Translations under genes and position numbers: made by a program
From: a virus
Virus record (IMG/VR): IMGVR_UViG_3300028840_004790
Direction: 5' to 3' (one strand)
Length of the DNA: 47,121 bases
The notes under the pieces: model-generated
What the model was told of the DNA's origin: nothing
Databases searched by the model: none
Seen by the model: the letters and a program-made list of their open reading frames with translations, nothing else
In this document: piece after piece, positions 3,598 to 37,085 of the stretch
How positions within the stretch are numbered: position 1 is the stretch's first letter
How the letters are laid out: each line of letters begins with the position of its first letter

Positions 3598-6500
3598 ATG
3601 CCCGAAAACACCTTCCGAATCCCAGACCAGGAGTGGGACGCCCTCGTCCCGTCCTCCCCGATCGACAGTGGCCATTTCGTCATCCCGGACGCCGAGTGGA
3701 CCAACCTGACCAGTCCTCGGCTCGGCGGCGTCGAAGCCGAGGCTGAGGACCGGCTCAAAGCCCTACCCGTTGCTCCCCAAGACCTGACCATACCTGTCCA
3801 GCGCCTGGCCTCCGGTGCCATGGAAGGCGGCCACGAGGCTGTCGTGACCTACGCGAACCGGCTCGCGGCCGCGGGGTTCCCAGGTGCGCAGCGGCTCGCG
3901 GACTACCCCTACTCCGAGCAGATCCAGAAATCTGCGGTGAATGATTACTACGAATTCATGAACGGGATGGGGATCCTGGATGTGGACGGGCCCGGGGCGG
4001 CCGACGCCAAGCGGCGAATACGGAACTCATTCACCGCAATTACTACGGTAAAAAACCAGCCCCTGTTCGGCACGGACCGGGCCAAGATGGCCGGTGCGGT
4101 GGTCCGCAACCTCACCAAAGAGCGCGTGAGTCGGATCCTGGAAGAGGACGGCCCGATCGAGTCCAAGGAGCGGATCGCGGCCCTGGGCCAAATGGTCTCG
4201 CAGTGGTCCGACGACGAGCTCGACGACGTGTACAAGCTGGCCCGGTTCCTGGCGACCGAGACCCCGGTCAATGATTTCGACGCGGCGGTGTTCCGGCGCT
4301 TCACCGGCAACGAAACCCTCCCAGGCAAGACCGTCCTGGACGTGGGCATCAACATCGTCCAGCCCTACGTCACCGCAGCAACGACAAAGATCCCAACCGG
4401 ACAGAAGCTCGGAGTCCTGCAAGAGATCTTTGGCGACAACGCCCCGAGTGCAATCAACGCCGAGTTTGAGAAGCGAAAGGCCCGGTACGTTCTGGGCCAG
4501 CTCAATGTCGAGGTCCGGGAAGACGGCACCATGGGCGCCGGCCAGACCGCGGACGGGTACACGTTCATGCCGCTCGCGCCCAAGGGCGATCTCGATCTCC
4601 TCCTCAAGCTCAAGTCGGACCAGGAACCGATCAAGGAGATCCTGGACCGGTACCCTTCCCAACAGCCCACCTTTCTTGAAATCAAATCCCAGCACGGTGA
4701 GCCCGCGGCCCAGGACTACCTGCGCCAGGTCAACCAGCAAGGTCTCCAGTACATGGCCGAGCAGGTGGCCAAGGGTGTGGCGGTACCCGACGACGAGACC
4801 CTGGTACGGGGCATGACCCCGTTCGAGCGGAAAAAGGCCGGGGTCTGGGCCGATGTCGGGGCCGTCATGGAGCGTATGGGCGACATGTGGAACACAGCCG
4901 TCCGCGGCACCCACGAGCTCGACAAGCGGATTAGCGCGATCCCTCAGGTCCAGGAGCTGATCAAGCTCAATGCCTGGGGCGCCACCGGAAACAAGGACAT
5001 CGCCAACCAGACCAAGACCATCACGGACCTGTTCAAGCTCCTGCCGACCCTTTACATGGAAGGCAAGGGCCTCGGGGACACGTTCACTCCCGAAGCCGTT
5101 CGGAGCTATCAGGAGTTTCTCAACGCCTCCCCGGAAGAGATGAAGGCCCTGATGGACGTGTCGAACGACCCGCTCCGGTTCTACCGCGAGTACCACAGTG
5201 AGTCCTTCAAGCAACTGGACGAAAGTTCCAGGATAATGAATGATATGATCACTGGAAAGCAAGAATTTCGGCCCGGCAAGTTCATGTGGGAACTCGCCTA
5301 TACCGTTATGGGCCAGGTCTGGCACGGGGCCGCCGAGCCCTTTGCCATGATCGCTGACGACCCGGCCCAGCTCCCGGTCTTCCTCGGAACCGGCCTGGCC
5401 GGCGAAAAGATCGCGGCCCGGGGCCGGGCGGCCATGGTGCGTGGTATCGATCAGATCACGTACGGCACCCGGATAAAAAACTCCTTGAACCAGATCTGGA
5501 CCCATGCCCCGGAACAGGCCAAGATCTTCCGGGATGCGATCAAGAAGTCGGTCGCACGGAACCCGGACCTGAGCTCTGCCGCCGCGGTGGCGGAAGAGGT
5601 GGTCAAGCAGGTGAACCGGACCGGGCACATTAAAGACGCGAAGGGTTTCTCCCGGGTACTGCTGGATGCTTGGCCGGACATCAAGAACGAGCTGGGCGCG
5701 GTCGGGCAGGCCATTACCGAGAGTAAGTTCCCGAAAGGCATCACCGAGCGCCTCCGGTTTGCCTGGCAGGCTTTAGGTGGGTCTCCGAAGGGCATCGACA
5801 AGAACCTGGCCATTTCCATCACCCAACAACCGCTCGACGACGCGGCCAACGCGATCCGGTCCATACTCGGCACCGGCCCGGAGGCCGAGGTGATGACGAA
5901 CAAGTACCTGGACTTCGTGTCGAAGCACGAGCGCCGGCCCCGCACTGAAGAGTTGGTGGACATGATGCCGGAGCAGTACGCGACCTTTGCGGGACTGATG
6001 CTGGCCGCCGAACGGGTCCCGCTCCAGAACTCTGTCATATCCCGGGCTGCCGCGGCGGTGTTCGGGTGGCGGGACACCAAGATACTCCAATCCTTGGTGG
6101 ACAGCGCCGACAACGAACTGGCCCGTACAGCCCAGTTCGCGGTCGACGATGTCATGCTCCAGCGCCGGTGGGGCGTGAAACGGCTCCGGAGCCAGGTCCT
6201 TACCAATGTGGCTACCAACCGAAAACGGAACGCGCTGAGAAGTACCGAACTGGCCAAGGCCATTGACGAGGCACACGGACTACCCAAGGACCCAACGGTA
6301 GACACCCGCATCAAACAACAGAAGCTGGAGCTCCAGCGGCTTGAGGCAGAGCAGGACCGGCTCTCCCGGCATTCGTTCCGAGAGAGTTGGGAGGGCCCCT
6401 CTGCCATGGTCTGGGCTGAGCTGGATGACGCAGCCGTGGAACTGATCCTGGACACGCACCCAGAGCTGTTCAGTGGCTTCTCCAAGGAGATCCTCTACGA

Positions 6501-9500
6501 CTACAAAATCTCCAAGACGGGCAAGCCCACGATCGAGACGGCCAAACGTCGGGCCGAAGGGTTTCGGAAACGGATCTTTCAGCTCCAGGAGGAACTCAAC
6601 AATGTGCGAAAGGATCCGATCGGTAACGATCGGGTCGTAGCCGACCTGCATGAGAATCTCGCGGAGATGCAAAAGCAACAGGCTGCATACAAGGCCGCCG
6701 ATGGCCTGGAAGATCCGAAGCTGGCCTCCGACATTACCGTCATGCGCCAGTACCTGGCCAACCGGCTCCGGCACCTCCGGAACCGCGAGGTCCGGGCCAC
6801 CCGCGAGGACGTGATCATGGCCGAGCAGGACGCCGTGATTGCCGACCACCGTCGGGCCCAGGCCCGGTACACGGAACTGGCCAACGGGATCGCCCGGCCC
6901 ACGATCAGTGAAGAGGGCAAGAAGATGTTCCAGGACCTGATCCGACACCGTGGCGCCACCGACGCGATGCGGGACGACCTGACCTGGATGAAACAGCGGC
7001 TCGCCGCGATCGAGGGCGAGCGGTACGCCGGCAGTCGGGGGAACCCGTTCCACCTGAAGTGGCTCCCGGCATGGAAGCGAGGCCAGCATGTGGCGGACAC
7101 GGTCCGGTCGACGATGGCCCGTGAAATGGACGCTGGCGCCCGGATCGAGGAGCTCACGGCCATACTCCGGAAACTCCCGGACGAGCAGAAGCGCCTACTG
7201 TCCCTGGCTCAGCGCCGGCAGGTCTCACCCCGGGACCTGATGAAGCGCCCGATGATTGCCCGGGCATTCAAGCACCTAGCGAACGAGGACCTCGACACGC
7301 TCCAGTTGTTCTTCGAGGAGGAGCAGTTGGGATTCGATCAGCTCATGGACTTCCTCGAGAAGTCTGGGAAGCTGCCCCCGCACGTCTTGAAGTCGTGGCG
7401 GAAGATGGGCTACGATCCGCGACTTGACGTGGCGGACGAGCTCTCGGAACTGATCGTGGAAGAGACCGCCCGAAAGGCCATGGGGCGGGGGCGTGTCCAG
7501 TCTGTCCTACCCACCCAGCCGTTCCTGCACGCCAGGGGCCGGGCCTTCCAGTTCAAGCGACACCACCAGCTCTGGCGGGTACGTGTGAACGAGCCCGACC
7601 TGGTACTGGATGAGACGTTCCTGACCCGGCAGCAGGCCGAGAAGTTCCTGAAGGACCGGTACGGGGACGACATTATTGGGACCCTGGACAAGCACAAGGG
7701 TGGCCTGATCGGCAAGAACCCGTACGGGGACGAGGTCCGCCTGGCCCCGCCCCTCTCCGCAGCGGAGAAGGAGGCGCGTGGGTTCTTCGGCAGTGCCGGT
7801 GAGGAGAGCCTCCGCGGCGAATACGGAACCAAGCGGGCCAAGATGCACACGGCCGCCCGCCGATTGAAGAGGATGTCGGAGGTGTTGAAGGACGTGACGG
7901 CCTCGTCACTGATCGACACCTACAATATGCACGGTGGGTACGTGCTCGACAAGGCCCAGCACGCCCTGCTCCAGCAGAAGTACGGGAACTCGGTCACCTC
8001 CAGGTTCCACTTCGTACCGGAGAACAAGCGGGCGTTTGGGAACATGGCCGGCAAGTACGTCCATAAGCAGATCCTGGCCGAGCTCAACCGGGCGTCGAAA
8101 CTGTACGACAGCCTCAACAGTGTCGTGGCCGGTATGCGCGAGGCCTTCCAGGCCGACGTCCCGGACGCGATCAAGCCGTTCACGCCCGGGGCCGTATACA
8201 AAGCCTTCGACTGGGTCGCCGACGCGGCCCGGAGCTCGCTGATCACCCACTCCATTCGGTCCCACATTGTCAACCCCCTGTTCAACATTATCTCTGACTA
8301 CCTGGCCGGCACCCGGGTGTACTCGTCCGAGAACCTCGACAACCTGCTCTGGGCCGCCAAACAGGCGGGCCCGACCGGCAAGGGCCGGCTCACGCGGGAC
8401 CCGATCTTCCAGGAAGCCCGCCGGAACAACCTTGTCACCGGTCTGTTTGAGACCGAGGACGACGCGCTCCGGAACCTGTCCCTCGACGTGATGGGGATCA
8501 ATAAGCAGAATATCGCCCAGGTGCGGAACCTCATGGGTAAGACCAAGGTGCTGCACGAGAAGTACCGGCAGCTGCTCTTAAAGGGCGAGGACCCGCCCCT
8601 GCTCCTGACGGTGCAGAAGAAGCTCCAGGCCCTGGAGGCGGCACTGGCCGAGCTCGACCAGAGCCGGTTGAAGATCGGCTTCAAGAAATTCGTCGGGCTC
8701 TGGGTCCGTAACCGAGACGCCTTTGGGCGCCCCAGGAACAAGACCGCCCGGTTCATGCGCCGGTGGTACAACTTCTACGACGAGTTCTTCAAGCTGGCCC
8801 AGTACGCGAACCTTCGCCGGCAGGGACTCAGCGAGAACCAGGCCGTCAAGGTCGTGAAGACGTTCAGTCAGAACTACGCAGAGGTCCCGTACTGGCTCCG
8901 GGGGATCCACCCGGCCGTCCGTGGTATGGTCGTGAGCTTCCCTTACGAGCTTATGAGGATCACGGGTAACGCGGCGCGTTATCGGCCACACCGGCTGGTC
9001 GGGCTCTTGGCGACCCTGCCAATGTTCAATATGATGCAGCTGGCCCAGGCCGGCGTGAGCTGGGACCGATGGGACCAGATGCTGGAGGCCCGTGGAAAAC
9101 GGACCCCGACACAGGGCCTGCTCAGCATGATGTCCAGTATGTACCTGATCGACCCAAGGACCAAGAATATTACGTCAGAAGTTGACCTGAGCGGTCTCTT
9201 GCCGTTCGAGGACCTCGTAGCCAATGGGCACGGCATGATCGCTCAGGCCATGGACAACATGATGCCTCCCGAGAAGCGGGACGGGCTCCAGCACGCAGCG
9301 GCCGTCGGCGGGACCATCGCTTCCAACTTTCTTTTCAACCACCCGATCTACAACATCGGCCAGTTCTTCTTGTCCGGGACCGACCCGGTCACGGGCCGGC
9401 CCCTGCTCTCGCCGGGCGCTCCCCTGCTCCAGAAGGTCCAGGAGGGTGTGAAGATCGCCGGCAAGACCTTTATACCTCCGTGGATGCCTGGGGGTCGGGA

Positions 9501-10314
9501 CTTCACGGCATACGAGGAGGCCTGGCACGCCCCGCTCAACCCTCGGACCGGACGCCCGTTCCACTCACAGCAGCCGGCCACGGCCCTGATCCGGGCCGCC
9601 TCGGGTATCGGCCTGAAGGGTCAGGCGGCCGACGACGTTGGAAACCTGATCGGTGTTGGGCGTGGCCGGAAGTCGGTGCTGACCAAAGACGAGGACATTA
9701 TCCTTAACAACCTGTACAAGGTGAGCGGCCTGATGAACCCGGACCGTCCGGACTACCCTATCTACGGCCCCGACCGGGAGGTCCGCGAGCTTTACAACCG
9801 CGCCATCGACAGCTCCTTTTCGCCAGAGGAACGGGCCGAGGCCGAAAAACAACTCGACGAGAAATTGAAGGAGGAGATCACCGAGCGCCAGGGTCGCCTG
9901 GTAGTGAAGCGGACCCGGACCGAACGCGAGGTGGAGATGGAAAAACGCTCCATGGAAGAGAACGGGTGGCAGAACTTCATGGCCAAGCAACCGATCGTAC
10001 AACAGGTCCTGGCCTTCATCCTGAACGAGCAGGCCGGGGTCCACGACCGGCTCCTCCGCGAGCAGTCCAACATCATCAAGTTCACTGAACTGGGCAATGA
10101 CCGTGTCATCAACGACCCGGGCAAGGTCCAGGAAGCAATCGACCACCTCGAGAAGGCCATGGAGCGGCCCACTAACCAGCGGGTGCTGGAACTCCGCAAC
10201 TACCTTAAGGAGGTCGTACTTCCCATGTCCGAGGTGCGCCGCATGTTCGAGCCGTACCGACTTCAGTTACAAGACGCCCGGAAAGAAGCAATAAGGAGAA
10301 AGTTCGATGGTTGA
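3598..10314 (+). CDS. Giant 2,238-aa virion protein, putative internal/ejection protein
   Basis: Single uninterrupted ORF; mostly helical, charged sequence with no catalytic motif I can assign; follows three smaller putative internal proteins, as T7 gp14-16 do; antisense ORFs in this span look like GC-rich shadows. Confidence 0.7.
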   Translation: MPENTFRIPDQEWDALVPSSPIDSGHFVIPDAEWTNLTSPRLGGVEAEAEDRLKALPVAPQDLTIPVQRLASGAMEGGHEAVVTYANRLAAAGFPGAQRLADYPYSEQIQKSAVNDYYEFMNGMGILDVDGPGAADAKRRIRNSFTAITTVKNQPLFGTDRAKMAGAVVRNLTKERVSRILEEDGPIESKERIAALGQMVSQWSDDELDDVYKLARFLATETPVNDFDAAVFRRFTGNETLPGKTVLDVGINIVQPYVTAATTKIPTGQKLGVLQEIFGDNAPSAINAEFEKRKARYVLGQLNVEVREDGTMGAGQTADGYTFMPLAPKGDLDLLLKLKSDQEPIKEILDRYPSQQPTFLEIKSQHGEPAAQDYLRQVNQQGLQYMAEQVAKGVAVPDDETLVRGMTPFERKKAGVWADVGAVMERMGDMWNTAVRGTHELDKRISAIPQVQELIKLNAWGATGNKDIANQTKTITDLFKLLPTLYMEGKGLGDTFTPEAVRSYQEFLNASPEEMKALMDVSNDPLRFYREYHSESFKQLDESSRIMNDMITGKQEFRPGKFMWELAYTVMGQVWHGAAEPFAMIADDPAQLPVFLGTGLAGEKIAARGRAAMVRGIDQITYGTRIKNSLNQIWTHAPEQAKIFRDAIKKSVARNPDLSSAAAVAEEVVKQVNRTGHIKDAKGFSRVLLDAWPDIKNELGAVGQAITESKFPKGITERLRFAWQALGGSPKGIDKNLAISITQQPLDDAANAIRSILGTGPEAEVMTNKYLDFVSKHERRPRTEELVDMMPEQYATFAGLMLAAERVPLQNSVISRAAAAVFGWRDTKILQSLVDSADNELARTAQFAVDDVMLQRRWGVKRLRSQVLTNVATNRKRNALRSTELAKAIDEAHGLPKDPTVDTRIKQQKLELQRLEAEQDRLSRHSFRESWEGPSAMVWAELDDAAVELILDTHPELFSGFSKEILYDYKISKTGKPTIETAKRRAEGFRKRIFQLQEELNNVRKDPIGNDRVVADLHENLAEMQKQQAAYKAADGLEDPKLASDITVMRQYLANRLRHLRNREVRATREDVIMAEQDAVIADHRRAQARYTELANGIARPTISEEGKKMFQDLIRHRGATDAMRDDLTWMKQRLAAIEGERYAGSRGNPFHLKWLPAWKRGQHVADTVRSTMAREMDAGARIEELTAILRKLPDEQKRLLSLAQRRQVSPRDLMKRPMIARAFKHLANEDLDTLQLFFEEEQLGFDQLMDFLEKSGKLPPHVLKSWRKMGYDPRLDVADELSELIVEETARKAMGRGRVQSVLPTQPFLHARGRAFQFKRHHQLWRVRVNEPDLVLDETFLTRQQAEKFLKDRYGDDIIGTLDKHKGGLIGKNPYGDEVRLAPPLSAAEKEARGFFGSAGEESLRGEYGTKRAKMHTAARRLKRMSEVLKDVTASSLIDTYNMHGGYVLDKAQHALLQQKYGNSVTSRFHFVPENKRAFGNMAGKYVHKQILAELNRASKLYDSLNSVVAGMREAFQADVPDAIKPFTPGAVYKAFDWVADAARSSLITHSIRSHIVNPLFNIISDYLAGTRVYSSENLDNLLWAAKQAGPTGKGRLTRDPIFQEARRNNLVTGLFETEDDALRNLSLDVMGINKQNIAQVRNLMGKTKVLHEKYRQLLLKGEDPPLLLTVQKKLQALEAALAELDQSRLKIGFKKFVGLWVRNRDAFGRPRNKTARFMRRWYNFYDEFFKLAQYANLRRQGLSENQAVKVVKTFSQNYAEVPYWLRGIHPAVRGMVVSFPYELMRITGNAARYRPHRLVGLLATLPMFNMMQLAQAGVSWDRWDQMLEARGKRTPTQGLLSMMSSMYLIDPRTKNITSEVDLSGLLPFEDLVANGHGMIAQAMDNMMPPEKRDGLQHAAAVGGTIASNFLFNHPIYNIGQFFLSGTDPVTGRPLLSPGAPLLQKVQEGVKIAGKTFIPPWMPGGRDFTAYEEAWHAPLNPRTGRPFHSQQPATALIRAASGIGLKGQAADDVGNLIGVGRGRKSVLTKDEDIILNNLYKVSGLMNPDRPDYPIYGPDREVRELYNRAIDSSFSPEERAEAEKQLDEKLKEEITERQGRLVVKRTRTEREVEMEKRSMEENGWQNFMAKQPIVQQVLAFILNEQAGVHDRLLREQSNIIKFTELGNDRVINDPGKVQEAIDHLEKAMERPTNQRVLELRNYLKEVVLPMSEVRRMFEPYRLQLQDARKEAIRRKFDG

Positions 10315-11039: not shown

Positions 11040-12059
11040 TCAGTTTGCGACTCGTCGACTTTCCACAGCCTCAATGGCCCGCCGGGTAAACTTGATAATC
11101 AGCTCGGCCTCCCGGATCCCCATGTCGGGCCGGCACGGGAGAGTCACGAGCGGCGCCGGCGGAAAATTCCACGCAGTCGGGACGCCCCATTTCGCCAACT
11201 CCGCACGAACTTCGGCCACATCCCGTACTTCCACTTGAAAGAGATACGGTACCAACGGCTGACACCGAAAAGGGACCTCCCAATTCTGTCCAGCACGCGC
11301 CAGCTTCTGCCACGAAAGCCGAATCCCAGCCATGTAACGATCCGACACCTCCAACGCCTCAAGATTGAGCGCGGCCGCCACGTCTGTGAGATGCGTTTCT
11401 CGGCCAGGTACGCTTGGTTCAGTGCCTCCAAGTCTTGTGGGGTTAAACGCTGGAGAAAGTCCAGAAGAACACCAAGATTCAATCTCCCGGGCGTGTTCTG
11501 GGTCTTTACAAACCACGACCCCGCCTTCAGCGCCCGGCACAGGTTTCGTTGGATAGCAAGAGAGGACCGCAAAGTCGGCGGCAGGATCAGGCAGCCAAGA
11601 GTGACACGCGTCGTGAATATACCATTTCGGATAAGGTAAGCGATTCGCCACAAAGTAGCGGGAAGACATATCTTCATCTTCAATTGCCAGCCTCCGTCCT
11701 CCAATATCAGTTTTGACCACAATATCAGGCCGAGACCGCCAGTCCCGGTCCCAGCCCGTACACATCCCAGCATGTGAGATCGCATGCCGAATCCCGACAA
11801 AGGTCGCGTGCGTACAATCAATTGTCGGATAGTCCTCCGGCTCCTCCCCCAGCGCGTCATGGTAGCAAATCATATCCAGCACCGCCTGGAACCCACTCGT
11901 AGCCCGGGCCGCGAGCGCGATCCGGTCGGGCCCCACCTTTAGCTTCTCTGCTACAGCCTCTCTGAACCTCTCGCACATGGGCCCCGCGGTCAACCACCGG
12001 GAGGCCAAGACTTTGTCGAGGTACTTTCCCGTAAGTCGCGGTGGTTTATACAATTCCAT
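11040..12059 (-). CDS. DegT/DnrJ/EryC1/StrS-family PLP-dependent sugar aminotransferase
   Basis: N-terminal 'WLTAGPMCERFREAVAEKL' and 'SCYPTKPVPGAEGGVVV' (PLP-lysine plus GEGG-type motif); 339 aa. Confidence 0.8.
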   Translation of the reverse strand: MELYKPPRLTGKYLDKVLASRWLTAGPMCERFREAVAEKLKVGPDRIALAARATSGFQAVLDMICYHDALGEEPEDYPTIDCTHATFVGIRHAISHAGMCTGWDRDWRSRPDIVVKTDIGGRRLAIEDEDMSSRYFVANRLPYPKWYIHDACHSWLPDPAADFAVLSCYPTKPVPGAEGGVVVCKDPEHAREIESWCSSGLSPAFNPTRLGGTEPSVPGRETHLTDVAAALNLEALEVSDRYMAGIRLSWQKLARAGQNWEVPFRCQPLVPYLFQVEVRDVAEVRAELAKWGVPTAWNFPPAPLVTLPCRPDMGIREAELIIKFTRRAIEAVESRRVAN

Positions 12060-12282
12060 TACATCCTGCCTTTTTCATTCGACGCTGGAACCCTCGCTTA
12101 TGAAGGAGAGTCCGGTTAGTTTTGATAAACTCCACCGCGTGGAGGGCTTGTGCAATGTCCCAGTACGAGTAACGACCGTATCCTGGAACAATCAGATCCT
12201 CTTGTGCCATAAACCCCGTCCAGGTGGCCCTCACCTCGGCGGGATCCGGCTGGGTAAATATAATTGTTTTAGAGCGTTCCAT
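12046..12282 (-). CDS. Hypothetical small protein between the SDR and aminotransferase genes
   Basis: ORF 12046-12300; internal ATG 12282 (MERSKTIIF...) gives a short overlap with the SDR stop. Confidence 0.5.
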   Translation of the reverse strand: MERSKTIIFTQPDPAEVRATWTGFMAQEDLIVPGYGRYSYWDIAQALHAVEFIKTNRTLLHKRGFQRRMKKAGCNGIV

Positions 12283-13180
12283 CCTCATTCTTTTCCACAA
12301 ATCCGTACAGGGCCTTGAACTGATCGGCGCCGTCGTACACTCCGACCGAATGGATCAGGGTACTGAGCTCCAGGTTAATCTCCATCGGCTCGAACTCGCC
12401 CCACCCGTAGTCCCGGTTGTCAAGGTCCGGCGCGTTGTCGGGGACCACGATCTCAACAGGACTGTCTGGCTTCTTCATGGCGACCTTGAGCTGGACGAGC
12501 TGGGCAAACTCCTGAAGTGTGCCACATGTGTCGTAGTGGTTCGAAATGGTGCCGCGGGGGCCCTCCGAGAAAATGTCCCGCTCCAGGGCGTGGACGGCCT
12601 TACGCAGAGCCAGGACTGGTCGCCTTTTAGTTGGATGCGTAACGGTAATCTTTCCTTTGGTGACCGCGTCGATGGACATCCGATTGAGCAGGAGGTGTGC
12701 GCGAAAAGACTCTGCGTCGCCGGGATTCGGGACGCCGAACACTGTCCCGAACCGAAGAAGGGATCCACGGGCACCAAAGTCCCCGGCCGCGACAAGAGCT
12801 TGCTCGAGATATCGTTTAGACTCTGGGTATGCACCTTCAGCGAAGACGGAGAGTGACGAGACAGCGGTGTAAGGACAGCCTGTCCCGGAGAGAGCCACGG
12901 CGACCCTTCGAGCATTATTCCGAATAGCGATGGTGGTATTGATGCGCCCGGACGGGTCGTGTGCGTAGGCGCCGAGCCAGACGATATGGTCCGGGACGAT
13001 TTTGTCAATATACCGGACGACGTCTTTGGTTTTGAAAATTTTCTGGACTGCGGGTGTAGCAGGCGGCTGACCGTAAACACAAGGATCAACACGGAACAGC
13101 TCAATATCATCCCGGAAAGTAAACCGGCGGCATAAGGCGCGTCCAATGTAGCCCTCACTTCCCACTATCAGTAGTTTCAT
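12269..13180 (-). CDS. NAD-dependent epimerase/dehydratase (extended SDR) acting on nucleotide sugars
   Basis: Rossmann motif 'KLLIVGSEGYIGRAL' (GxxGxxG) and catalytic 'YPESK' (YxxxK); 303 aa. Confidence 0.8.
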   Translation of the reverse strand: MKLLIVGSEGYIGRALCRRFTFRDDIELFRVDPCVYGQPPATPAVQKIFKTKDVVRYIDKIVPDHIVWLGAYAHDPSGRINTTIAIRNNARRVAVALSGTGCPYTAVSSLSVFAEGAYPESKRYLEQALVAAGDFGARGSLLRFGTVFGVPNPGDAESFRAHLLLNRMSIDAVTKGKITVTHPTKRRPVLALRKAVHALERDIFSEGPRGTISNHYDTCGTLQEFAQLVQLKVAMKKPDSPVEIVVPDNAPDLDNRDYGWGEFEPMEINLELSTLIHSVGVYDGADQFKALYGFVEKNEDGTL

Positions 13181-13589
13181 TTTTCAATTCTCCACAGTAG
13201 CACTGCGCCGGCTTGTCCATCCCTAAATAGTCATGTTTCACTGTCGTTCCGCATATATGACAGTAATTTGAGGGAACCATCCCGTTAAAGTTAGGCCGGT
13301 CGTCCAGGTCCGGCCGGTTGTGAAACATCCGGTTCAGCATCATGAGACAGCACCCGGCGTGCCACAGGTGGGGCTTGCCACTCTCCGGGTCCATGTCCTC
13401 CCCATCCCAAAACGCCCACATGTGCCGCATGAGGGCCCCGAACAACCGGCTCGCCTCGATCCCCTCCATCCAATTGTACTTGGCGTACTTCTTGGCGCCG
13501 AAGGTCATGATCTCGCCAACTCCCATCAAGAAGGCCGGGTCCAGGAGCTCGAGCTGGATCTTATCTTGATCGTTCTTCTGACCGCTCAT
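13155..13589 (-). CDS. DUF5664-like (dATP/dGTP diphosphohydrolase N-terminal-like) domain protein with C-terminal Cys-rich tail
   Basis: 'NDQDKIQLELLDPAFLMGVGEIMTFGAKKYAKYNWMEG...ALMRHMWAFWDGEDMDPESGKPHLWHAGCCLMML' matches the D.gK..LLp..l..va.vl.fGa.KY...NW..G....A..RH......D.eSG..H family pattern as I remember it; tail 'YCHICG...CYCG'. Confidence 0.6.
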   Translation of the reverse strand: MSGQKNDQDKIQLELLDPAFLMGVGEIMTFGAKKYAKYNWMEGIEASRLFGALMRHMWAFWDGEDMDPESGKPHLWHAGCCLMMLNRMFHNRPDLDDRPNFNGMVPSNYCHICGTTVKHDYLGMDKPAQCYCGELKNETTDSGK

Positions 13590-13990
13590 CTATACTCCAA
13601 CTTCTCATAAAAATCTGGGTCGAACACCATACCAATAGCAGTCCGGAGACGGTTCCCGATCGTGCACTTGGTCCACTCCGACATCTGAGCGGGTCCGGGC
13701 TTCCATACCCGGAATGGGAGCTTGAAATGGCGCCGGGCCCACTCTAATTCTGCACACACCCCGTACGACAGGTAAGCGGTAGGAGTCCACACCGCCACCA
13801 GCCCGTCACAGCTGCCCATTTCCAAAAAGTCAATTTCCTGCTCCGCTAGAAGCGAGTGCTCCCCGACCTTGAGCGCCGGATCAAAATAATGAAATCCGCG
13901 CTCGGCCAGCTCATGGCGCATCTGCTGAACTATGGCTTTCTCGGACGGCCGGGCTCTGGTCATCGGAAATGATAGGTATATTTTGTACAT
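13586..13990 (-). CDS. Nucleoside 2-deoxyribosyltransferase-like / nucleotide N-glycosidase-like protein
   Basis: 'KIYLSFPM' (compare YLAGP.F) and 'DGLVAVWTPTAYLSYGVCAELEWA' (compare D.vva.ld....D.Gt.fElG.A). Confidence 0.5.
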   Translation of the reverse strand: MYKIYLSFPMTRARPSEKAIVQQMRHELAERGFHYFDPALKVGEHSLLAEQEIDFLEMGSCDGLVAVWTPTAYLSYGVCAELEWARRHFKLPFRVWKPGPAQMSEWTKCTIGNRLRTAIGMVFDPDFYEKLEYR

Positions 13991-15773: not shown

Positions 15774-15802
15774 AGTATACCACCCTTTCTATATAATGTC
15801 AA
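15774..15802 (-). promoter_or_regulatory. Sigma70-type promoter TTGACA-17-TATACT
   Basis: The minus strand reads TTGACAttatatagaaagggtggTATACTgtagtATG; perfect -35, 17-nt spacer and near-consensus -10, directly after the polymerase stop. Confidence 0.65.
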
Positions 15803-17936: not shown

Positions 17937-18120
17937 TGTCTACGACCCTTTCGGTGCGGACGGTGATCTCATACGTCTTGTTAGGATCAGGTTTTTCTCC
18001 GCCCATGAGCTTCTGAAGTAGCCAGCCCGGCACCCGGCCCTCACGGCTTCCGTCTACCGTACACAACCAGCGAGAGCCCTTCGTTGCGTACTGCGTCCAT
18101 GCTGTAATTGTGACTTCCAT
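17926..18120 (-). CDS. Hypothetical protein (64 aa)
   Basis: ORF overlapping the polymerase start by 11 nt; non-repetitive sequence. Confidence 0.55.
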   Translation of the reverse strand: MEVTITAWTQYATKGSRWLCTVDGSREGRVPGWLLQKLMGGEKPDPNKTYEITVRTERVVDNGL

Positions 18121-18473
18121 TACTTCCCCCTATGAATCAACGCATGCCCAACGATCGACCGCCAGGACAGCCGCAACTGGTCCTGCTCACCCTTCCGACG
18201 AATCGTCATCCCGTTGATGCTGAACCCCAGCACCCACGTCGCGTCCTCGATCGCCGGGTCGCTCGACTTGATCGTCACCTCCCGGTAGATCGTCTTGTCC
18301 TTTGGAAATTCCATCTCCTGCTCCTTTCGGTTTCCATTCGGCCCCGCACCGGCAACACCGCCATACTTTATGATCGGTGGTTCCCCAATAACCACACCCG
18401 GCGTGTAGGGTCGGTGGACGCCCTTTGTTAAAAATTCTGTCGTAGTCCTCTTCGGACATTGATACGCCGACAC
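18120..18473 (-). CDS. Hypothetical protein; start uncertain (GTG 18473 or ATG 18314 with AAGGAG RBS)
   Basis: The C-terminal 64 aa (MEFPKDKTIYREVTIKSSDPAIEDATWVLGFSINGM...) are clearly protein-like; the alternative overlapping ORF 18187-18498 has a junk-like C-terminus. Confidence 0.6.
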   Translation of the reverse strand: MSAYQCPKRTTTEFLTKGVHRPYTPGVVIGEPPIIKYGGVAGAGPNGNRKEQEMEFPKDKTIYREVTIKSSDPAIEDATWVLGFSINGMTIRRKGEQDQLRLSWRSIVGHALIHRGK

Positions 18474-18506
18474 TGAATGATTTGTTAAGGTATTTCATAG
18501 TTTAAA

Positions 18507-18636
18507 GGTCGCGGCGCAGGGAATCGAACCCTGATCTCCGGCTCTAACTGCCGGTGCTTTTATAGAGCCGACCAGCGGGCTTCCGTACTGGCCTCCATAT
18601 TTGACTCCGTTGCCCTTCCATTAAGCTACCACCGCG
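18507..18636 (-). ncRNA. tRNA-like RNA (~128 nt) with canonical acceptor, D and T arms but a ~55-nt insertion; candidate anticodon arm displays UUA
   Basis: Minus strand: CGCGGUG/CGCCGCG acceptor (one G.U); D arm UAGCUUAAUGGAAGGGCA; CCGGC-AGUUAGA-GCCGG; 4-nt variable; T arm CAGGG-UUCGAUU-CCCUG; then A-CC. Confidence 0.45.
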
Positions 18637-18693
18637 ATAAAGGGGCCGCTCCAAGGTTCCAGCCTGCGCTGTCCCAATTCGCGGCCAACGAGA

Positions 18694-18766
18694 CTCTGCC
18701 AGAGGGACTTGAACCCCCATTCCGCCCGTGTACACGCGACGGTCTTGCCTGTTAGATGATGGCAGA
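18694..18766 (-). tRNA. tRNA-like gene of canonical length (73 nt); anticodon position reads GUA (Tyr) but the anticodon stem is defective
   Basis: Acceptor UCUGCCA/UGGCAGA is perfect; D loop has A14, G18G19 and A21; T arm GGGGG-UUCAAGU-CCCUC; the stem at positions 27-31/39-43 has only 3 pairs. Confidence 0.55.
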
Positions 18767-18769
18767 GGT

Positions 18770-20227
18770 TCATTTCACACCTAAAGTATACCCTTTTTCT
18801 TCCGACTTGTCAAGCACGAACTCAAACGACCGCCCCTCACTGAACAGCTTCCGGCCGGTGAGCTTCTCGACGAACCGCCGCAACGCCTCGGTCCGGGACC
18901 GGTCCGTGGGCGTGGGCCCGATCGAGAGCGCCGCGGCCAACTCCTGAAGCGACTGGTTAAAGAACACCATGTTGGCGACTTTCGAGAGCGCCACTGGCTG
19001 GCCCCCGGCGTCCTGCACCATGTCCTCGACCAGGACTCGGAGCTCCTGGACCGTGCTGTCGGTCGAGTCGGCCACGTCCGGGTCGTAGTCCGGCTCGAGC
19101 CCGATCGTCTTGGCCGCGGCCCGGGCAATCCACTCGAACTGGCCGAACCTGGACTTGGCATAACTCGTGTCCATCTCGGCAGTTGTGAGTGCGTGGATGA
19201 TCTCTTGGAGCAGCTCCTCTCGGTGCGCTTTGACGTACTCGAGCGGGTGCGGCTTAAAGTACCGGCCGCTCTCGCCGGCCAGGACCACCCGGACCACGCG
19301 ATCGTGCAGGTCGTGCTCGACCGCGGCCCCGTTCATGGTGAAGATCAGGATGGGGTAGTCGAGGACTTCGGGTCGCTTTCCGTAGACTGGTCGGACTGAC
19401 ACAGTTGGGGAGGTAGCTGCTTGAGCCAGTAGTTGTGATCGAATTGCGCGGGTCTGGCCGCGAAGCGGTCGCACATTGTCAACATATATAACATTAGGGC
19501 CAGCGTTTCCACAACTCCCTGCAATTCTTTTCTCGAGCTCTTGTTCACCTCCGGAGAGTGTGAAAGGTGCTTTAATTTGTCCCGTAAGGAGATAGCAAAG
19601 GCTATCAACGAGAGAAGATTTCCCGACCTTTCGGGAGACGCCGTCCACCACGAGGAAAGGGAAGTACGGACAGCTGGCTCTTGCAAAACTTGATAGAATG
19701 TAACCATAGAGGTTGTCCCTATAAATTGGCTCCGCGTACTCGAGCGCGGACAGCCACGCCTTCAGGTGCGGCCCCGGCTTCGGGGTGGTCATCTTACCGG
19801 TGAAGAGGAGTTCGTGGTGGTACCCGGCGTGGGCCTGCACCAGGCGCCCCTCATCGAGGACCGCCGCCGGGAGGTTGTAGAGCCCCCGGGCGAGCGGGAA
19901 CAGTGACAGGAGCTCGCCCTCCAATAGGTTCCCGAGCCACTTGATGTACGGACCTTGTTGAAAGTAGGGCAGGGGTGTGACGGTGCCGTGTTGATTGGCC
20001 CGCCCGAAACAAATCACTCCCATGTCCCGGACCGCCGGGCCGATGCCCCGACGCGGAGCGATCCGGTGGGCGAAGGGGAGCCCGTCCTTGGTGCCGAGGT
20101 GGAGGAAGTTCCCCGCTTCGTCCCGGTAGAACGAACCGTTCTGGTACTCGCGGAGCGCTCGCTCCACCTCGGCCGCCGCGGAGGGGTTCCCGGCGTCAAT
20201 GAGGGAAGTGTCAAGGAAATGGGTCAT
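18770..20227 (-). CDS. P-loop NTPase, primase/helicase-like replication protein (SF3/VirE-D5-like)
   Basis: Walker A 'VSRKVGKSSL', Walker B-like 'NVIYVDNV'; ~190-aa N-terminal domain of unknown type; ATGA overlap with the upstream gene fixes the start at 20227. Confidence 0.65.
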   Translation of the reverse strand: MTHFLDTSLIDAGNPSAAAEVERALREYQNGSFYRDEAGNFLHLGTKDGLPFAHRIAPRRGIGPAVRDMGVICFGRANQHGTVTPLPYFQQGPYIKWLGNLLEGELLSLFPLARGLYNLPAAVLDEGRLVQAHAGYHHELLFTGKMTTPKPGPHLKAWLSALEYAEPIYRDNLYGYILSSFARASCPYFPFLVVDGVSRKVGKSSLVDSLCYLLTGQIKAPFTLSGGEQELEKRIAGSCGNAGPNVIYVDNVRPLRGQTRAIRSQLLAQAATSPTVSVRPVYGKRPEVLDYPILIFTMNGAAVEHDLHDRVVRVVLAGESGRYFKPHPLEYVKAHREELLQEIIHALTTAEMDTSYAKSRFGQFEWIARAAAKTIGLEPDYDPDVADSTDSTVQELRVLVEDMVQDAGGQPVALSKVANMVFFNQSLQELAAALSIGPTPTDRSRTEALRRFVEKLTGRKLFSEGRSFEFVLDKSEEKGYTLGVK

Positions 20228-22188: not shown

Positions 22189-22217
22189 AGTATACAACAT
22201 TTTAGACTGGTGGTCAA
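22189..22217 (-). promoter_or_regulatory. Sigma70-type promoter TTGACC-17-TATACT for the pentapeptide-repeat gene
   Basis: The minus strand reads TTGACCaccagtctaaaatgttgTATACTcttactGGAGGTgacttATG. Confidence 0.6.
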
Positions 22218-22491
22218 TCGAAAAATAACGATTTACAGTGCGGCGGGGATTTTCCTATATTATATATTCCCTGTCTTTAATTAAACGGGGGAAGGGGGGA
22301 GAGTATCCTACTCCCCGCCGCACCATAAGTCGTTTGTTTCCGTGGTCAGTCACTCAAAACCTACCAATATGGGTAGTATACCAAATCTTGACACCGTGTA
22401 ATTTTTACCTGGTTAAGAGACCGTGGGAGGATTCGAACCTCCATAGGTCCATAGCTCCCGGGGCCGGGCCCCCAACCCACGCTCCCCGGGC

Positions 22492-25879: not shown

Positions 25880-26096
25880 CGTGGGGGTCCTTTTTGAACT
25901 TGGCGCCGCAGGCCAGGCACACAAACGGGTGCGACTGGCCCGCGGTCACGGCCATGGTGGTGTGGTGGCATACGACACCGTCTTCGGTGATTTTGGTGCT
26001 TTGCCGGATCTGTTCCTGCCACCACCGAGCGGCGCGGCCAGTGTCGTCGTTCTGGGCCGCGGCCTGTTTCAGGATCTCGTTCATATCTTCAGACAT
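25854..26096 (-). CDS. Hypothetical protein with a Cys/His cluster (80 aa)
   Basis: ATG 26096 behind GGAGGAAG; 'VVCHHTTMAVTAGQSHPFVCLACGAKF'. Confidence 0.6.
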   Translation of the reverse strand: MSEDMNEILKQAAAQNDDTGRAARWWQEQIRQSTKITEDGVVCHHTTMAVTAGQSHPFVCLACGAKFKKDPHDGYHLRTP

Positions 26097-26674
26097 CTCA
26101 CTTCCTCCACAGGCGTGTCCCAGCCTTTCGAGCACTGAGAAAACCAACGCCTGAATTCTTTCATAGTGTGGGGTTTGTCATGGACCGCTAGGATCCTGTT
26201 ACTTAACGGGACGCCCCGTTCAATGTGGACCCAAGACTTTCGGAACCGCATAAAGGCGTACTCCCACAAATCTTTCCAGGTGGTTCGTAAGGTCTCGTCT
26301 TCCAGGACCTTGGGTTTGTACTGGTGCCAACCGGCCGCGTACAGGCGCCCGTTGTCGATCGTGTTGGTCATTTCGTGGATCATGAAGCCCGGGGCCCGGT
26401 CCTCTAGCCAACAGAAGAAGTTCGGGAAGACGCCCCGGTTCTGGGGGTTCCCGAGGTGGATGTTGATCGGGGGGCGCCGGACCGCCCCGAGCATGTCGGG
26501 GGGTATGATCCACCGGTACCCGTCGCTAATTATCAGATCCCACTGAGGAGCCTCAGGAGCCCACAGGCGGGGTTTGCGGGTTTCGACCTTCAACGAGCCC
26601 TGGACGGCCAAAAAGTCGCACAGCGGCGAAGTACGGGGCCGTGAGGGGGATGTGAGCAGGAGTATGTTCACCAT
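26081..26674 (-). CDS. Formyltransferase-fold protein (Formyl_trans_N-like)
   Basis: 'DLIISDGYRWIIPPDML...PPINIHLGNPQNRG...GFMIHEMTNTIDNGRLYA' follows the layout DlivvagY..ilp...iNiHpSlLP.yRG...G.tvh.....D.G.i (Asn-His...Asp). Confidence 0.65.
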   Translation of the reverse strand: MVNILLLTSPSRPRTSPLCDFLAVQGSLKVETRKPRLWAPEAPQWDLIISDGYRWIIPPDMLGAVRRPPINIHLGNPQNRGVFPNFFCWLEDRAPGFMIHEMTNTIDNGRLYAAGWHQYKPKVLEDETLRTTWKDLWEYAFMRFRKSWVHIERGVPLSNRILAVHDKPHTMKEFRRWFSQCSKGWDTPVEEVRCLKI

Positions 26675-26945: not shown

Positions 26946-27344
26946 ATGACTGTTACAGACATGGTCAATGCCACCCTCGGCCAGACGGCACGGTCAGAGT
27001 ACCAGAGGGGCGCTGTGGTTGACAACATCGCCGGCGTTTACCTGCTGTATCAGAAGGACAAGTTGCTTTACGTCGGACAAACGTACAATGTGAATCAGCG
27101 ACTGATCCAGCACCAGGAGAAACCATTTACTCATGCTATAGTATACCACATCAACGAGCTGGTGTCAAGGCTTCGAGTAGAGGGGATCCTGATTTTATGG
27201 CTCCTACCTGAGCTCAACCGCGGAATGAACCTCGGTCTCTGTAAAGGCAAGGTCTGGGAAGTTAAATGGCGAAGAAGCGGGTCGGGACCCGCCAAAAGAA
27301 AAAGAACGAGCCCCAGCGTCGCACGGCGCTCTCGCCCGCAGTAG
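26946..27344 (+). CDS. GIY-YIG domain protein
   Basis: 'AGVYLLYQKDKLLYVGQTYNVNQRLIQH'; the last ~25 codons run out of frame over the next gene. Confidence 0.7.
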   Translation: MTVTDMVNATLGQTARSEYQRGAVVDNIAGVYLLYQKDKLLYVGQTYNVNQRLIQHQEKPFTHAIVYHINELVSRLRVEGILILWLLPELNRGMNLGLCKGKVWEVKWRRSGSGPAKRKRTSPSVARRSRPQ

Positions 27345-30262: not shown

Positions 30263-30876
30263 TCACGTTCCATCTAATCAAGTGCTTTGAGGGCCCGCGT
30301 CACGATAGGCTCAGGGCCATCTGGAACAAGCTCGCGTACCAACACCGGGACCGCATGGGGCTGGTCTGGTGGGAAAATCCTGGCGCCCAGTTACAACATC
30401 AACACTGCCTGGCTCTGATCTGGGAAGGGATCCAAGAACTCCCGGGCCGGTACCACGTTATCACGGAACACGACTTTCTACCCGGCCCCGGCGGGCTCGA
30501 CCCGCCGCGGGCCCCGATCGAGGCCGCAGAGTATGTCACAAGAACCCCAGACGGAAAACAAACCGCCCACGGCTACCCCGGCGCCTGGTGGCTCGGGTTC
30601 GACCTCGAAGCGATACATCGTGATCGCCTCCCAGTCAATCTCGCTGCCGGTGGCCCGTGCAATGACCCAGCAAATCTCCTCGAAGGGGCGACGCTCTTGG
30701 CTAATCGGGACCCTTGGCCTGATAGCTACGGTACGGTGGTCGGTGACAAAGGGGAGCACCTCTTCTGGTCACGACACTATAACGATCCGGTATGGGCTCG
30801 TCCAGCCGGTTTTAACCTCGGGGATATCCTTGAAAAGGTAGACAGTAGGATCGCCGCGTATGAAGCTACTTTCTAA
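30259..30876 (+). CDS. Hypothetical protein (205 aa)
   Basis: ATGA overlap defines the start; W-rich globular sequence; no motif assigned. Confidence 0.6.
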   Translation: MITFHLIKCFEGPRHDRLRAIWNKLAYQHRDRMGLVWWENPGAQLQHQHCLALIWEGIQELPGRYHVITEHDFLPGPGGLDPPRAPIEAAEYVTRTPDGKQTAHGYPGAWWLGFDLEAIHRDRLPVNLAAGGPCNDPANLLEGATLLANRDPWPDSYGTVVGDKGEHLFWSRHYNDPVWARPAGFNLGDILEKVDSRIAAYEATF

Positions 30877-31111
30877 ATTGTGGCGGAGGCTCTACGGCCC
30901 ACCGCCGGAACCTGGCCAATTCAAACCGTCGGCTTGGGCTCGTGGGGACGGTGCTTGTCTTGGCTGGACCAATGTAACGGTTTGCCAAGACTGCGGCGCT
31001 ACTGGTTATTATTGGTCCTACCATCCGGCCAGCCCCTGTCACCTGTGCGGAGGAATCCGTCGGGAAGGCACCGGCATTTGGCGGGGTACCCGCTGGGAAC
31101 GGAAGCCGTGA
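30860..31111 (+). CDS. Zinc-ribbon protein (83 aa)
   Basis: 'CQDCG...CHLCG' paired CxxC motifs. Confidence 0.55.
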   Translation: MKLLSKLWRRLYGPPPEPGQFKPSAWARGDGACLGWTNVTVCQDCGATGYYWSYHPASPCHLCGGIRREGTGIWRGTRWERKP

Positions 31112-35177: not shown

Positions 35178-36079
35178 TGCCGGACGACGTACTTCCAGAC
35201 GCATTGCCCATACCGGAAGAGACCGTTCTTGAAAAGGGAGCGGACATTACAGGAGTGAAATTACCCAGCCTATCGGACCCGGAAGAGGTCCCGGCGTCGC
35301 CTGTGAAGGAAGGCGCTGTGGCCCCGGAAGTGGACGCCGATGCTGGTGTCATCCAACCGAAACCAAAACGGGATTTTCAGTCCCGGATCAACAGCCTGAC
35401 TCGCAAGCGTAGGGAGGCAGAGGAACAGAACTCGGTTCTGTCCCAGCAGCTCAACTTTGTGACTCAGCAGCTGGAAGACCTGCGCCGGCAGGCACGTCAG
35501 CCAGTGGTTCAGCAGCCGCCTCTTGCGCCTGCTGGTACGCCTATAGACGCTTTCGGCGGTGGCGAGGGTCAGCCCCCCGCGCCCCCGGCCGCGCCATCGG
35601 CTGAGGAAATTGCGGCTATTGTGTTACAACAGCTCAACGGCTATGCACAGCAGCAGCAGCAGGCGCAGCAAAAGGCCGACACGCTCCGACTCCAGCAGGA
35701 AGAGTCTTTCGGGGAAGCCCTGGAAGATATTCCGGACCTGGCAGACGGACGCACCCAGGCCGGAAAGCTGTTCAACCAGCTGTGGGCCCAATCGCCCCTG
35801 CGGAATGACCCGAACGGGCCGTTCCACGTTGCCATGACTGTCAGAGGCCTGTTGGCTGACGGCGCTGGAAATGGCCAACCGTCTCGAGCAACGGAAACGC
35901 AGAAACTCCAGGCCGCGACCTTTGCTCCAAAACCTTCAACAACGGATGTCCCGGAGATCGGACGCCAGCAGCTTGAGCAGGCTTATGCCAAGGCTATGCA
36001 GGCCTACAGCCAGGGCGACAAGGCTGCTTATGCAGCTGCGCGGAAGATCAGAGGGGAGATCAACAAACTCAACAGGTAA
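35177..36079 (+). CDS. Scaffolding protein
   Basis: Immediately upstream of the capsid gene; Q/A/E-rich coiled-coil segments (YAQQQQQAQQKADTLRLQQEE); Pro/Ala linker. Confidence 0.7.
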   Translation: MPDDVLPDALPIPEETVLEKGADITGVKLPSLSDPEEVPASPVKEGAVAPEVDADAGVIQPKPKRDFQSRINSLTRKRREAEEQNSVLSQQLNFVTQQLEDLRRQARQPVVQQPPLAPAGTPIDAFGGGEGQPPAPPAAPSAEEIAAIVLQQLNGYAQQQQQAQQKADTLRLQQEESFGEALEDIPDLADGRTQAGKLFNQLWAQSPLRNDPNGPFHVAMTVRGLLADGAGNGQPSRATETQKLQAATFAPKPSTTDVPEIGRQQLEQAYAKAMQAYSQGDKAAYAAARKIRGEINKLNR

Positions 36080-36082
36080 CCT

Positions 36083-37018: not shown

Positions 37019-37048
37019 CCCTTTGCTTGGGCCGGCCGTATGCTGACG

Positions 37049-37076: not shown

Positions 37077-37085
37077 GTAAAGAAA

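Follow-up and report, generated by a model that had tools for sequence, protein, structure and literature searches.

A tRNA-derived gene with a hairpin insert in an uncultured phage, and comparable insert-bearing genes in other phages

Genome and locus

The DNA analyzed here, hereafter called the window, is a 47,121-nt stretch from IMG/VR virus record IMGVR_UViG_3300028840_004790, an uncultured metagenomic phage that is presumably of soil origin, judging from related contigs. Its minus strand carries a tRNA-like gene, tl2, with the layout CGCGGUG-G-UA-GCUU-AAUGG-[58 nt]-AAGC-A-CCGGC-AGUUAGA-GCCGG-AGAU-CAGGG-UUCGAUU-CCCUG-CGCCGCG-A-CC. The Rfam tRNA model (RF00005) matches tl2 over model positions 1-71 with 34.6 bits, compared with a gathering score of 29 (E-value: 0.0013 for the whole 47-kb window, both strands and 4227 Rfam families). 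By this score the match is more than chance, and tl2 is a tRNA-derived gene. It shares with canonical tRNAs a 7-bp acceptor stem, the T-loop consensus (UUCGAUU) and the elbow residues G18G19 (in AAUGG). An earlier reading of the window (the original prediction) had placed on the minus strand a 7-bp acceptor (CGCGGUG/CGCCGCG), a T arm (CAGGG-UUCGAUU-CCCUG), an anticodon arm (CCGGC-AGUUAGA-GCCGG) 4 nt before the T arm with UUA at positions 34-36 and G at position 33, and a 3-nt connector (G-U-A) between the acceptor and the D arm. Each of these is present where it was placed.

Two neighbouring features had been overlooked: a second tRNA-like gene, tl1, just upstream of tl2, and the strong early promoter of sigma-70 type that precedes both (Table 1). 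Four TTGAC-N17-19-TATACT sites occur in the window, all of them on the minus strand, while 0.01 are expected by chance. tl1 starts 18 nt past the -10 hexamer. Its acceptor (CUCUGCCA/UGGCAGAG) pairs perfectly over 8 bp, its D arm is weak and its T arm reads GGGGG-UUCAAGU-CCCUC; where an anticodon arm would be expected there is instead a bulged 8-bp hairpin, capped by a GUAC tetraloop and with a palindromic CGUGUACACG core. When the whole 305-nt leader is folded, the tl1 and tl2 modules stay independent domains. Homologues of the 117-aa open reading frame (ORF) downstream of tl2 were found by tblastn directly upstream of DNA polymerase A (PolA) in four relatives of this phage (L001, L003, L004 and L007), and on this basis tl1 and tl2 are placed in the leader of the polymerase operon. 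An ATG-initiated ORF that abuts tl2 (18187-18498, minus strand) is probably not coding, as its G+C content at third codon positions (GC3) is 0.47, compared with 0.6-0.84 in real genes. We infer that tl1 and tl2 are transcribed together with the downstream genes, that they are processed and that the insert of tl2 is retained.

Table 1. Positions of tl2 and its parts, of the surrounding leader, and of insert-bearing elements in other phages. Coordinates are those of the window unless a contig handle is given.
Feature	Coordinates	Strand	Remarks
tl2, tRNA-like gene 2	18507-18636	-	Complete cloverleaf; ~55-nt hairpin insert, most likely in D loop; Rfam RF00005 match
tl2 acceptor, 5' strand CGCGGUG	18630-18636	-	7/7 pairs with 18510-18516; followed by extra G (18629), U8, A9
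tl2 D-stem 5' strand GCUU and D-loop 5' part AAUGG (G18G19)	18618-18626	-	cmscan alignment
tl2 D-loop insert	18560-18617	-	Long imperfect hairpin predicted by constrained folds
tl2 D-stem 3' strand AAGC	18556-18559	-	cmscan alignment; A26 next, at 18555
tl2 anticodon arm CCGGC-AGUUAGA-GCCGG	18538-18554	-	UUA at 18545-18547, G33, G37; sequence and cmscan
tl2 variable loop AGAU (4 nt)	18534-18537	-	Directly before T arm
tl2 T arm CAGGG-UUCGAUU-CCCUG	18517-18533	-	Sequence and cmscan
tl2 acceptor, 3' strand CGCCGCG	18510-18516	-	Followed by A73 and CC (18509-18507); full CCA not encoded
Promoter TTGACA-N17-TATACT, sigma-70-type	18785-18813	-	11/12 consensus positions; ahead of tl1, tl2 and downstream replication genes
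tl1, tRNA-like gene 1	18694-18767	-	Rfam tRNA 25.9 bits, under gathering score of 29; also recovered by T-arm/acceptor finder
Spacer between tl1 and tl2 (57 nt)	18637-18693	-	Own hairpin GGCCGC...GCGGCC in whole-leader fold
First real downstream gene, 117-aa ORF frame	18120-18473	-	GC3 0.71; starts ~33 nt after tl2
CcrPW element	L062 1417-1541 (NC_048046.1, about 72600-72724)		Family also in L065, L066-L068, L076-L078, L074
D-loop-insert tRNA genes	L079 5811-5917; L092 about 6501-6620; L102; L106 about 5829-5960; L082; L083; L090		

Site and folding of the insert

The original prediction described an insertion of about 55 nt lying between a "textbook" D arm (GCUU-AAUGGAA-GGGC) and the anticodon arm. 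The insertion is real; its placement and the D arm have to be revised. The proposed D arm needs two G-U pairs, and the covariance model (cmscan) instead pairs GCUU with AAGC (18559-18556), 58 nt further downstream. Next to this AAGC strand come A26 and, with nothing in between, the anticodon stem, which places the 58 nt inside the D loop after G18G19. About 63 nt separate the two D-stem strands of tl2, compared with approximately 7-11 nt in a canonical D loop, and 58 of these are assigned to the insertion by cmscan. Judged by the alignment, the ~55 extra nucleotides are most likely inside the D loop, right after G18G19, and the last 1-3 nt of the insert are probably native positions 20-21.

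A comparison with an intact phage tRNA leads to the same site. After removal of the insert, tl2 was compared with 50,697 phage records and matched best the tRNA-His(GUG) of Gordonia phage Trax (82% identity over 60 nt); the D arm (GCUUAAUGGUAAAGC), anticodon stem (CCGGC/GCCGG) and 4-nt variable loop of that tRNA are colinear with tl2. By this colinearity, the AAGC that follows the insert represents the 3' strand of the ancestral D stem. The two genes have the cloverleaf in common, their D arms (GCUUAAUGG..AAAGC) and anticodon stems are identical, and the arrangement AAAGC-N-stem also recurs in an element of contig L046, described below. tl2 differs from the Trax tRNA-His in its ~55-nt D-loop hairpin, its 3-nt connector, its anticodon loop (AGUUAGA rather than UUGUGGU) and its lack of a full CCA. 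The homology to the Trax tRNA, together with other phage genes that carry an insert at exactly the same site, favours the D-loop reading.

Folding energies do not discriminate between the two D arms: constrained folds gave -46.8 kcal/mol for the D-loop reading and -48.5 kcal/mol for the fold of the original prediction. With the D-loop reading, the insert pairs as UAUGGAG-GCCAG-(UA)-CGG-AAGC-CCG-CUGGU-(CGG)-CUCUAUA, i.e., as helices of 7, 5 and 3 bp closed by an AAGC loop. The GGCCAG/CUGGUC pairing proposed earlier forms in the minimum-energy fold, and the competing helix GGCUCUA/UAGAGCC that had also been suggested can form at a cost of about 2 kcal/mol when forced (-46.6 versus -48.5 kcal/mol). 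A 4-bp GGGC/GCCC pseudoknot between the insert and its 5' flank may form as an additional contact. The insert sequence occurs only once in the window, and its identification as a mobile repeat was rejected for this reason.

Comparison with decoding tRNAs and with known RNA classes

The original prediction also held that the element is tRNA-derived and is not a standard tRNA, a view supported by the following observations. First, the acceptor 5' strand is offset by one nucleotide, which can be read either as a 7-bp acceptor followed by a 3-nt connector or as a 6-bp acceptor with position 66 missing; the canonical two-nucleotide connector (positions 8 and 9) is absent. Second, the anticodon loop is A32-G33-U34-U35-A36-G37-A38, with neither U33 nor a suitable purine at position 37. 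U33, the residue responsible for the U-turn, is near-universal in tRNA, and a modified A normally occupies position 37 when the anticodon ends in A36. Third, ARAGORN with default settings called no tRNA or transfer-messenger RNA (tmRNA) anywhere in the window. In intron mode this program proposes a tRNA-Phe(aaa) with a 41-nt intron, a call that is implausible because it ignores the well-formed CCGGC/GCCGG arm.

Other RNA classes fit less well. The region 18400-18900 has no match to an intron, a ribozyme, another self-cleaving RNA or a Y-RNA (YrlA-like) in Rfam at E ≤ 10. This result and the bacterial type of the promoters speak against a classical intron; an intron-bearing tRNA had been among the options of the original prediction. 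A tmRNA was rejected: the best Rfam tmRNA score is 10.5 bits (permuted model) against a threshold of 47, ARAGORN detects none and the G3:U70 pair is absent. A 12-codon frame within the insert (AUG...UAA) was likewise considered as a tmRNA-like tag and rejected, as there is no alanine identity pair and no support from the detectors. The tRNA-like domain of tmRNA, YrlA (in which the tRNA-like module is internal) and mascRNA are acceptor/T-arm mimics for tRNA enzymes that do not decode through an anticodon; tl2 matches none of them, and the mascRNA model scores 15.6 bits on the tl2 region against a threshold of 42.5.

Archaeal pre-tRNAs can carry introns of tens of nucleotides in the D loop (PMC3241643). 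In tl2, no bulge-helix-bulge arrangement like that of the archaeal introns was seen at the insert boundaries by inspection, and the genome has sigma-70-type promoters and bacterial-type phage genes. To our knowledge, bacteria possess no splicing endonuclease of the archaeal bulge-helix-bulge type.

The species 1 and 2 RNAs of phage T4 (rnaC and rnaD), which together with these acceptor/T-arm mimics are the closest precedents in kind, are small stable RNAs encoded beside phage tRNA genes, and we know of no established function for them. The rnaC product has a tRNA-type T arm and acceptor helix at its end and an aberrant interior. It differs from tl2 in having a 5' extension and no recognizable D-loop insert, and it scores 17.5 bits on the tRNA-Sec model. 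Neither rnaC nor rnaD has any sequence relationship to tl1 or tl2.

Insert-bearing elements in other phages

IMG/VR was scanned with a pattern that required the D-arm sequence of tl2, a 40-70-nt gap and a T loop. A single match was obtained, at 3459-3573 of L046, in the tRNA array of a 455-kb phage contig. This element reads GCGGAUG-UA-GCUU-AAUGG-[42 nt, two hairpins]-AAGC-G-GCAGG-UAGUUAA-CCUGG-AGAA-T arm-CAUCCGA-G-CCA. Besides the shared UA-GCUU-AAUGG...AAGC, it agrees with tl2 in parts that the scan did not specify: the acceptor (GCGG.UG), an AGUUA-containing anticodon loop with a residue other than U at position 33, and a 4-nt variable loop of the form AGNN. In genome contigs, the D-arm pattern recovered only the L046 element, att-type duplications and archaeal intron-bearing tRNAs; a second pattern (AAGC..AGTTA..T-loop) mainly picked up class II tRNAs or odd, unrelated tRNA-like genes.

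A BLAST search with the L046 element led to an unannotated element in the cultured Caulobacter phage CcrPW and from there to a family, members of which are found in CcrPW, CcrColossus, seven Brevundimonas jumbo phages (Kabachok, Kikimora and others, with two distinct sequences between them) and IMG/VR contig L074. Their common form is NCGGRUG-AA-GCUC-UAGGG-[two hairpins, ~48 nt]-GAGY-G-CCGGG-U-N-G-Y-U-A-A-CCCGG-AGGC-T arm-acceptor-U-CCA, in which position 33 of the anticodon loop (U-N-G-Y-U-A-A) is A, C or G and never U. Within the Dolichocephalovirinae a metallophosphoesterase gene always lies just downstream of the element. The family has no Rfam entry and no annotation in the phage records. 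In the literature searched, there was no account of phage tRNAs carrying D-loop inserts or of this Caulobacter phage element, and the RNA elements reported in the genome paper on phiCbK and Colossus are tRNAs only (PMC3556154).

The six distinct sequences of this family support a cloverleaf in which the D stem closes over the insert. With this structure 97.6% of the cells are paired, as opposed to 39-54% in slid controls; nine pairs have changed on both sides, and none of 500 shuffles reached the observed values. The insert hairpins vary in sequence from phage to phage while their structure is kept. The tetraloops of the two hairpins complement each other and covary (GCGC/GCGC, GGCC/GGCC and ACGC/GCGU), which points to a kissing-loop contact.

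Several features of the jumbo-phage family recur in tl2: the insert site (3' of G18G19, with the D stem closing over the insert), the 4-nt AGNN variable loop, the non-U residue at position 33 and a CCGG-type anticodon stem. The sequence AGUUA is found in the anticodon loops of tl2, CcrPW and L046. There are also differences. The family has two short hairpins with complementary tetraloops, whereas in tl2 a single long hairpin ends in an AAGC loop; the anticodon loops are U-N-G-Y-U-A-A and AGUUAGA, respectively, with AGUUA shifted by 1 nt relative to the stem; and the 3' end is U73-CCA in the family and A73-CC-U in tl2. No metallophosphoesterase homologue was found in the window by tblastn, and the L046 element likewise does not have this linkage. 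A covariance model (R1) built from the six family sequences, with the window sequence excluded, gives tl2 37.7 bits (E-value: 4e-9), a score that does not set it apart from ordinary tRNAs, which obtain 30-60 bits (the best being an L046 tRNA-Asn at 59.7 bits). By sequence, the L046 element is intermediate, with a 5' half like that of tl2 and a loop and acceptor like those of the Caulobacter phage elements. Based on these comparisons, we regard the jumbo-phage family as apparently the closest analogue of tl2 and do not treat it as the family to which tl2 belongs.

A more generic scan of IMG/VR used the commonest bacterial D arm and a gap of 35-65 nt after the GG. It returned 35 matches, most of which were att-type duplications; approximately eight were genuine tRNA genes, seven of them distinct, as that of L110 is a second copy of that of L096. 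The genuine genes have 7/7 or 6/7 acceptor pairs and a 35-60-nt insert after G18G19, which in most of the genes is self-paired, and ARAGORN misses all seven listed in Table 1. Some have canonical anticodon loops: the L079 gene (Gly CCC) scores 52 bits with the Rfam tRNA model over 107 nt, and the loops of L092 (Phe GAA) and L106 (UAU) are also canonical. Several encode CCA. Others have aberrant loops, with an anticodon arm closed by UUCG in L082 (in addition to the D-loop insert) and 6-nt loops in L083 and L090.

Inserts are also found elsewhere in phage tRNA-like genes (L002, L046 697-798, L052 and L047). Given these other sites, and scan patterns that were restricted to the D loop, we do not claim that insertion is confined to the D loop or favours it. 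Over-long tRNA-like genes of 100-180 nt with inserts in the anticodon or variable region were noted at L052 6054-6233, L047 300-456 (the same as L054), L046 697-798 and L082 3719-3840; these are unrelated phage contigs, and the genes lie mostly inside tRNA arrays.

Relatives of the phage and other features of the window

The nearest PolA proteins among 5.8 billion sequences are 48% identical, the region has no DNA match in the 50,697 phage records, and IMG/VR contains no exact or near relative of the element. In L002 (PolA 47% identical) a tRNA-like gene is found at another position (9918-10009); it differs from tl2 in that its acceptor, D arm and T arm are standard and 19 extra nucleotides lie in the anticodon arm (CCGG-CAGAUCAA-CCGG). 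ARAGORN assigns this gene differently depending on the mode (Arg CCG, or Val CAC with an intron). In L001, the slot equivalent to that of tl1 and tl2 is occupied by a gene (5057-5404) for a 115-aa protein with an RF-1/peptidyl-tRNA-hydrolase domain, between a 490-aa gene and PolA.

The window encodes DNA polymerase A, a PD-(D/E)XK nuclease, a Clp protease, a terminase, a portal protein, a major head protein and a 2238-aa protein. The last of these (3598-10314, plus strand) has no Pfam match and has a 2319-aa counterpart in L002. Four (G)GTATACT-type promoters on the minus strand (15774-15802, 18785-18813, 22189-22217 and 27140-27168) divide the leftward early/replication region into operons. 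Genes for nucleotide and sugar modification are clustered on the minus strand at 11040-13990 and 26081-26674; they include a PF18909 dATP/dGTP diphosphohydrolase N-terminal domain, a weak nucleoside deoxyribosyltransferase-like match, an epimerase, a DegT aminotransferase and a formyltransferase, a set pointing to hypermodification of DNA or decoration with sugars. The 3' half of a tRNA stands alone at 22418-22470 (minus strand); this fragment, consisting of the T arm GGAGG-UUCGAAU-CCUCC and CACGGUC, follows a terminator hairpin in an intergenic gap where L001 and L003 have an integrase gene. It may be an attP core or the remnant of one.

Interpretation of tl1 and tl2

Our favoured reading, to which we assign a probability of roughly 0.4, is that tl2 (with tl1) may be a stable, non-decoding, tRNA-shaped mimic or decoy, one of the options raised by the original prediction. 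In both genes a consensus T loop is kept, as is the stack of a 7-8-bp acceptor stem on a 5-bp T stem, and tl2 also keeps G18G19. The changes are in the anticodon region, which is A32-G33-UUA-G37-A38 in tl2 and a closed GUAC hairpin in tl1. It is this retention of the acceptor/T half in the two genes, neither of which has a usable anticodon loop, that leads us to read them as non-decoding mimics. The promoter just upstream and the analogous genes elsewhere (the L002 gene, the L046 element, the jumbo-phage family and the L082 gene) also count in favour. Under this proposal, tl1 and tl2 would be transcribed together, early, from the sigma-70-type promoter heading the DNA polymerase A operon. They would mature as tRNAs do, by RNase P cleavage at the 5' end followed by 3' trimming and CCA completion, and the mature RNAs would occupy or divert a host tRNA-binding factor. 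The most plausible target would be a tRNA-directed defence nuclease or a tRNA-modifying enzyme.

Several observations weigh against this interpretation. Neither nhmmer nor a relaxed T-arm/acceptor scan found a homologue of tl1 or tl2 in the loci of relatives that were scanned (PolA 23-48% identical), where the different element of L002 was the only yield, so that there is no covariation or conservation for tl2 itself, and the confidence that can be placed in any function of this singleton is limited accordingly. Folding energies are no better than those of shuffled sequences (z = -1.0 to -1.7). UUA lies exactly at positions 34-36. The canonical loops of the L079, L092 and L106 genes indicate that a D-loop insert alone is not proof of lost decoding. 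Next to tl2 there is no gene for a candidate target such as a tRNA nuclease or an enzyme of RNA repair. Finally, tl2 could be decaying.

This last point leads to the strongest alternative, which we nevertheless consider unlikely: tl2 would be a functionless, decaying pseudogene of an accessory phage tRNA, possibly His- or Asn-like. A palindromic or hairpin sequence would have entered at a tolerated loop site, mutations in the anticodon loop and the connector would have followed, and transcription would persist only through the operon promoter. The absence of the element from all relatives and its several independent departures from the canon are consistent with decay, as is its Rfam score, only 5.6 bits over the threshold (that of tl1 is under it). 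Inserts at various sites in other phage tRNA-like genes suggest tolerance rather than design. On the other hand, the acceptors (7/7 and 8/8 pairs), T stems, T loops and G18G19 are unblemished and it is the anticodon loops that have changed, a pattern unexpected under neutral decay. Two such genes stand in tandem, and analogous insert-bearing genes are conserved with compensatory changes in Caulobacter and Brevundimonas phages.

The position of UUA raises the question of whether tl2 might act as a weak ochre (UAA) suppressor that permits low-efficiency read-through, with its D-loop hairpin tolerated or removed. A suppressor-like tRNA was among the options of the original prediction, and we regard it as improbable. 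The triplet is at the canonical positions in a 7-nt loop closed by a 5-bp stem, and in the jumbo-phage family G34 is followed by UUA or CUA, both complementary to UAR stops; this YUA is, however, at positions 35-37 and not 34-36. In tl2 itself G33 replaces the near-universal U33, A36 is followed by G37 and the connector is of 3 nt. The RF-1-domain gene at the syntenic slot of L001 counts in favour of suppression. Usage of stop codons in the window argues in the other direction: the stop codons of the greedy ORF set (96% of the window) are TGA (28), TAA (19) and TAG (10), so that the standard genetic code fits and genome-wide recoding is excluded, as had been concluded before. TAA terminates 19 of the 57 ORFs, about a third, including the terminase and major head genes. 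As TAA is an ordinary stop in this genome, a suppressor role is poorly supported.

Candidate read-through sites are few. At three plus-strand positions (2665-2673, 30874-30882 and 36077-36085) a TAA-NNN-ATG/GTG junction places the downstream gene in frame, a point in favour of suppression; one of these joins the major head gene to the gene upstream. Five of the six small positive gaps that follow a TAA are multiples of three, although these numbers are small and may reflect chance. Read-through of the TAA of the major head gene itself into the ORF at 37040-37366 (plus strand) was examined and rejected: this ORF has a GC3 of 0.38, lies over a terminator and is probably non-coding.

It is also quite improbable, in our view, that tl2 functions as a tRNA and that its hairpin is a novel type of intervening sequence, either excised or nicked by a host double-strand RNase or an unknown phage enzyme; in the nicked form, the acceptor and D stems would hold the two pieces of the tRNA together. 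This scenario draws on the D-loop hairpin inserts in phage tRNAs that have canonical loops and an encoded CCA (L079, L092 and L106), and on the strong self-pairing of the inserts. Against it, no self-splicing or self-cleaving Rfam family matches at E ≤ 10, 55 nt is far below the size of group I or group II introns, no RNA ligase or endonuclease gene lies nearby, and tl2 without its insert would still have G33 and a 3-nt connector. Least likely of all is that tl1 and tl2 serve only as processing signals ("tRNA punctuation"), with RNase P and the 3' enzymes setting the 5' end and stability of the mRNA: both genes do lie in the operon 5' leader between the promoter and the first gene (~33 nt past tl2) and are perfect only in the acceptor and T half, but relatives express the same operon without such an element, and punctuation needs neither a structured 55-nt D-loop arm nor an anticodon-like arm.

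Significance

For decades, phage T4 has been known to encode tRNA-shaped RNAs of unknown function, and phage tRNAs are now seen as weapons in the conflict over tRNA-targeting host nucleases. Against this background we advance, as a speculative proposal that is rather doubtful at present, that tl2, the L046 element, the jumbo-phage family and the other D-loop-insert genes may form one class of phage tRNA-shaped RNAs. A structured module on the tRNA elbow, sometimes of kissing hairpins, would either label phage tRNAs or decoys for recognition by a dedicated partner or protect them against tRNA-targeting host nucleases, and some members, including tl2, would not decode. Such a class was not found in Rfam, in record annotations or in the literature searched.

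Phage tRNA-derived genes with large structured insertions are missed by the gene finders and annotations checked here. The main value of tl2 is that it led to a wider set of insert-bearing genes, including a family, its fold supported by covariation, in cultured Caulobacter and Brevundimonas jumbo phages. Processing, aminoacylation and phenotype are directly testable in these phage-host systems. If the inserts are retained, they would represent a new way to decorate the tRNA elbow; if they are removed, this would imply an RNA-processing route so far unknown in bacteria.

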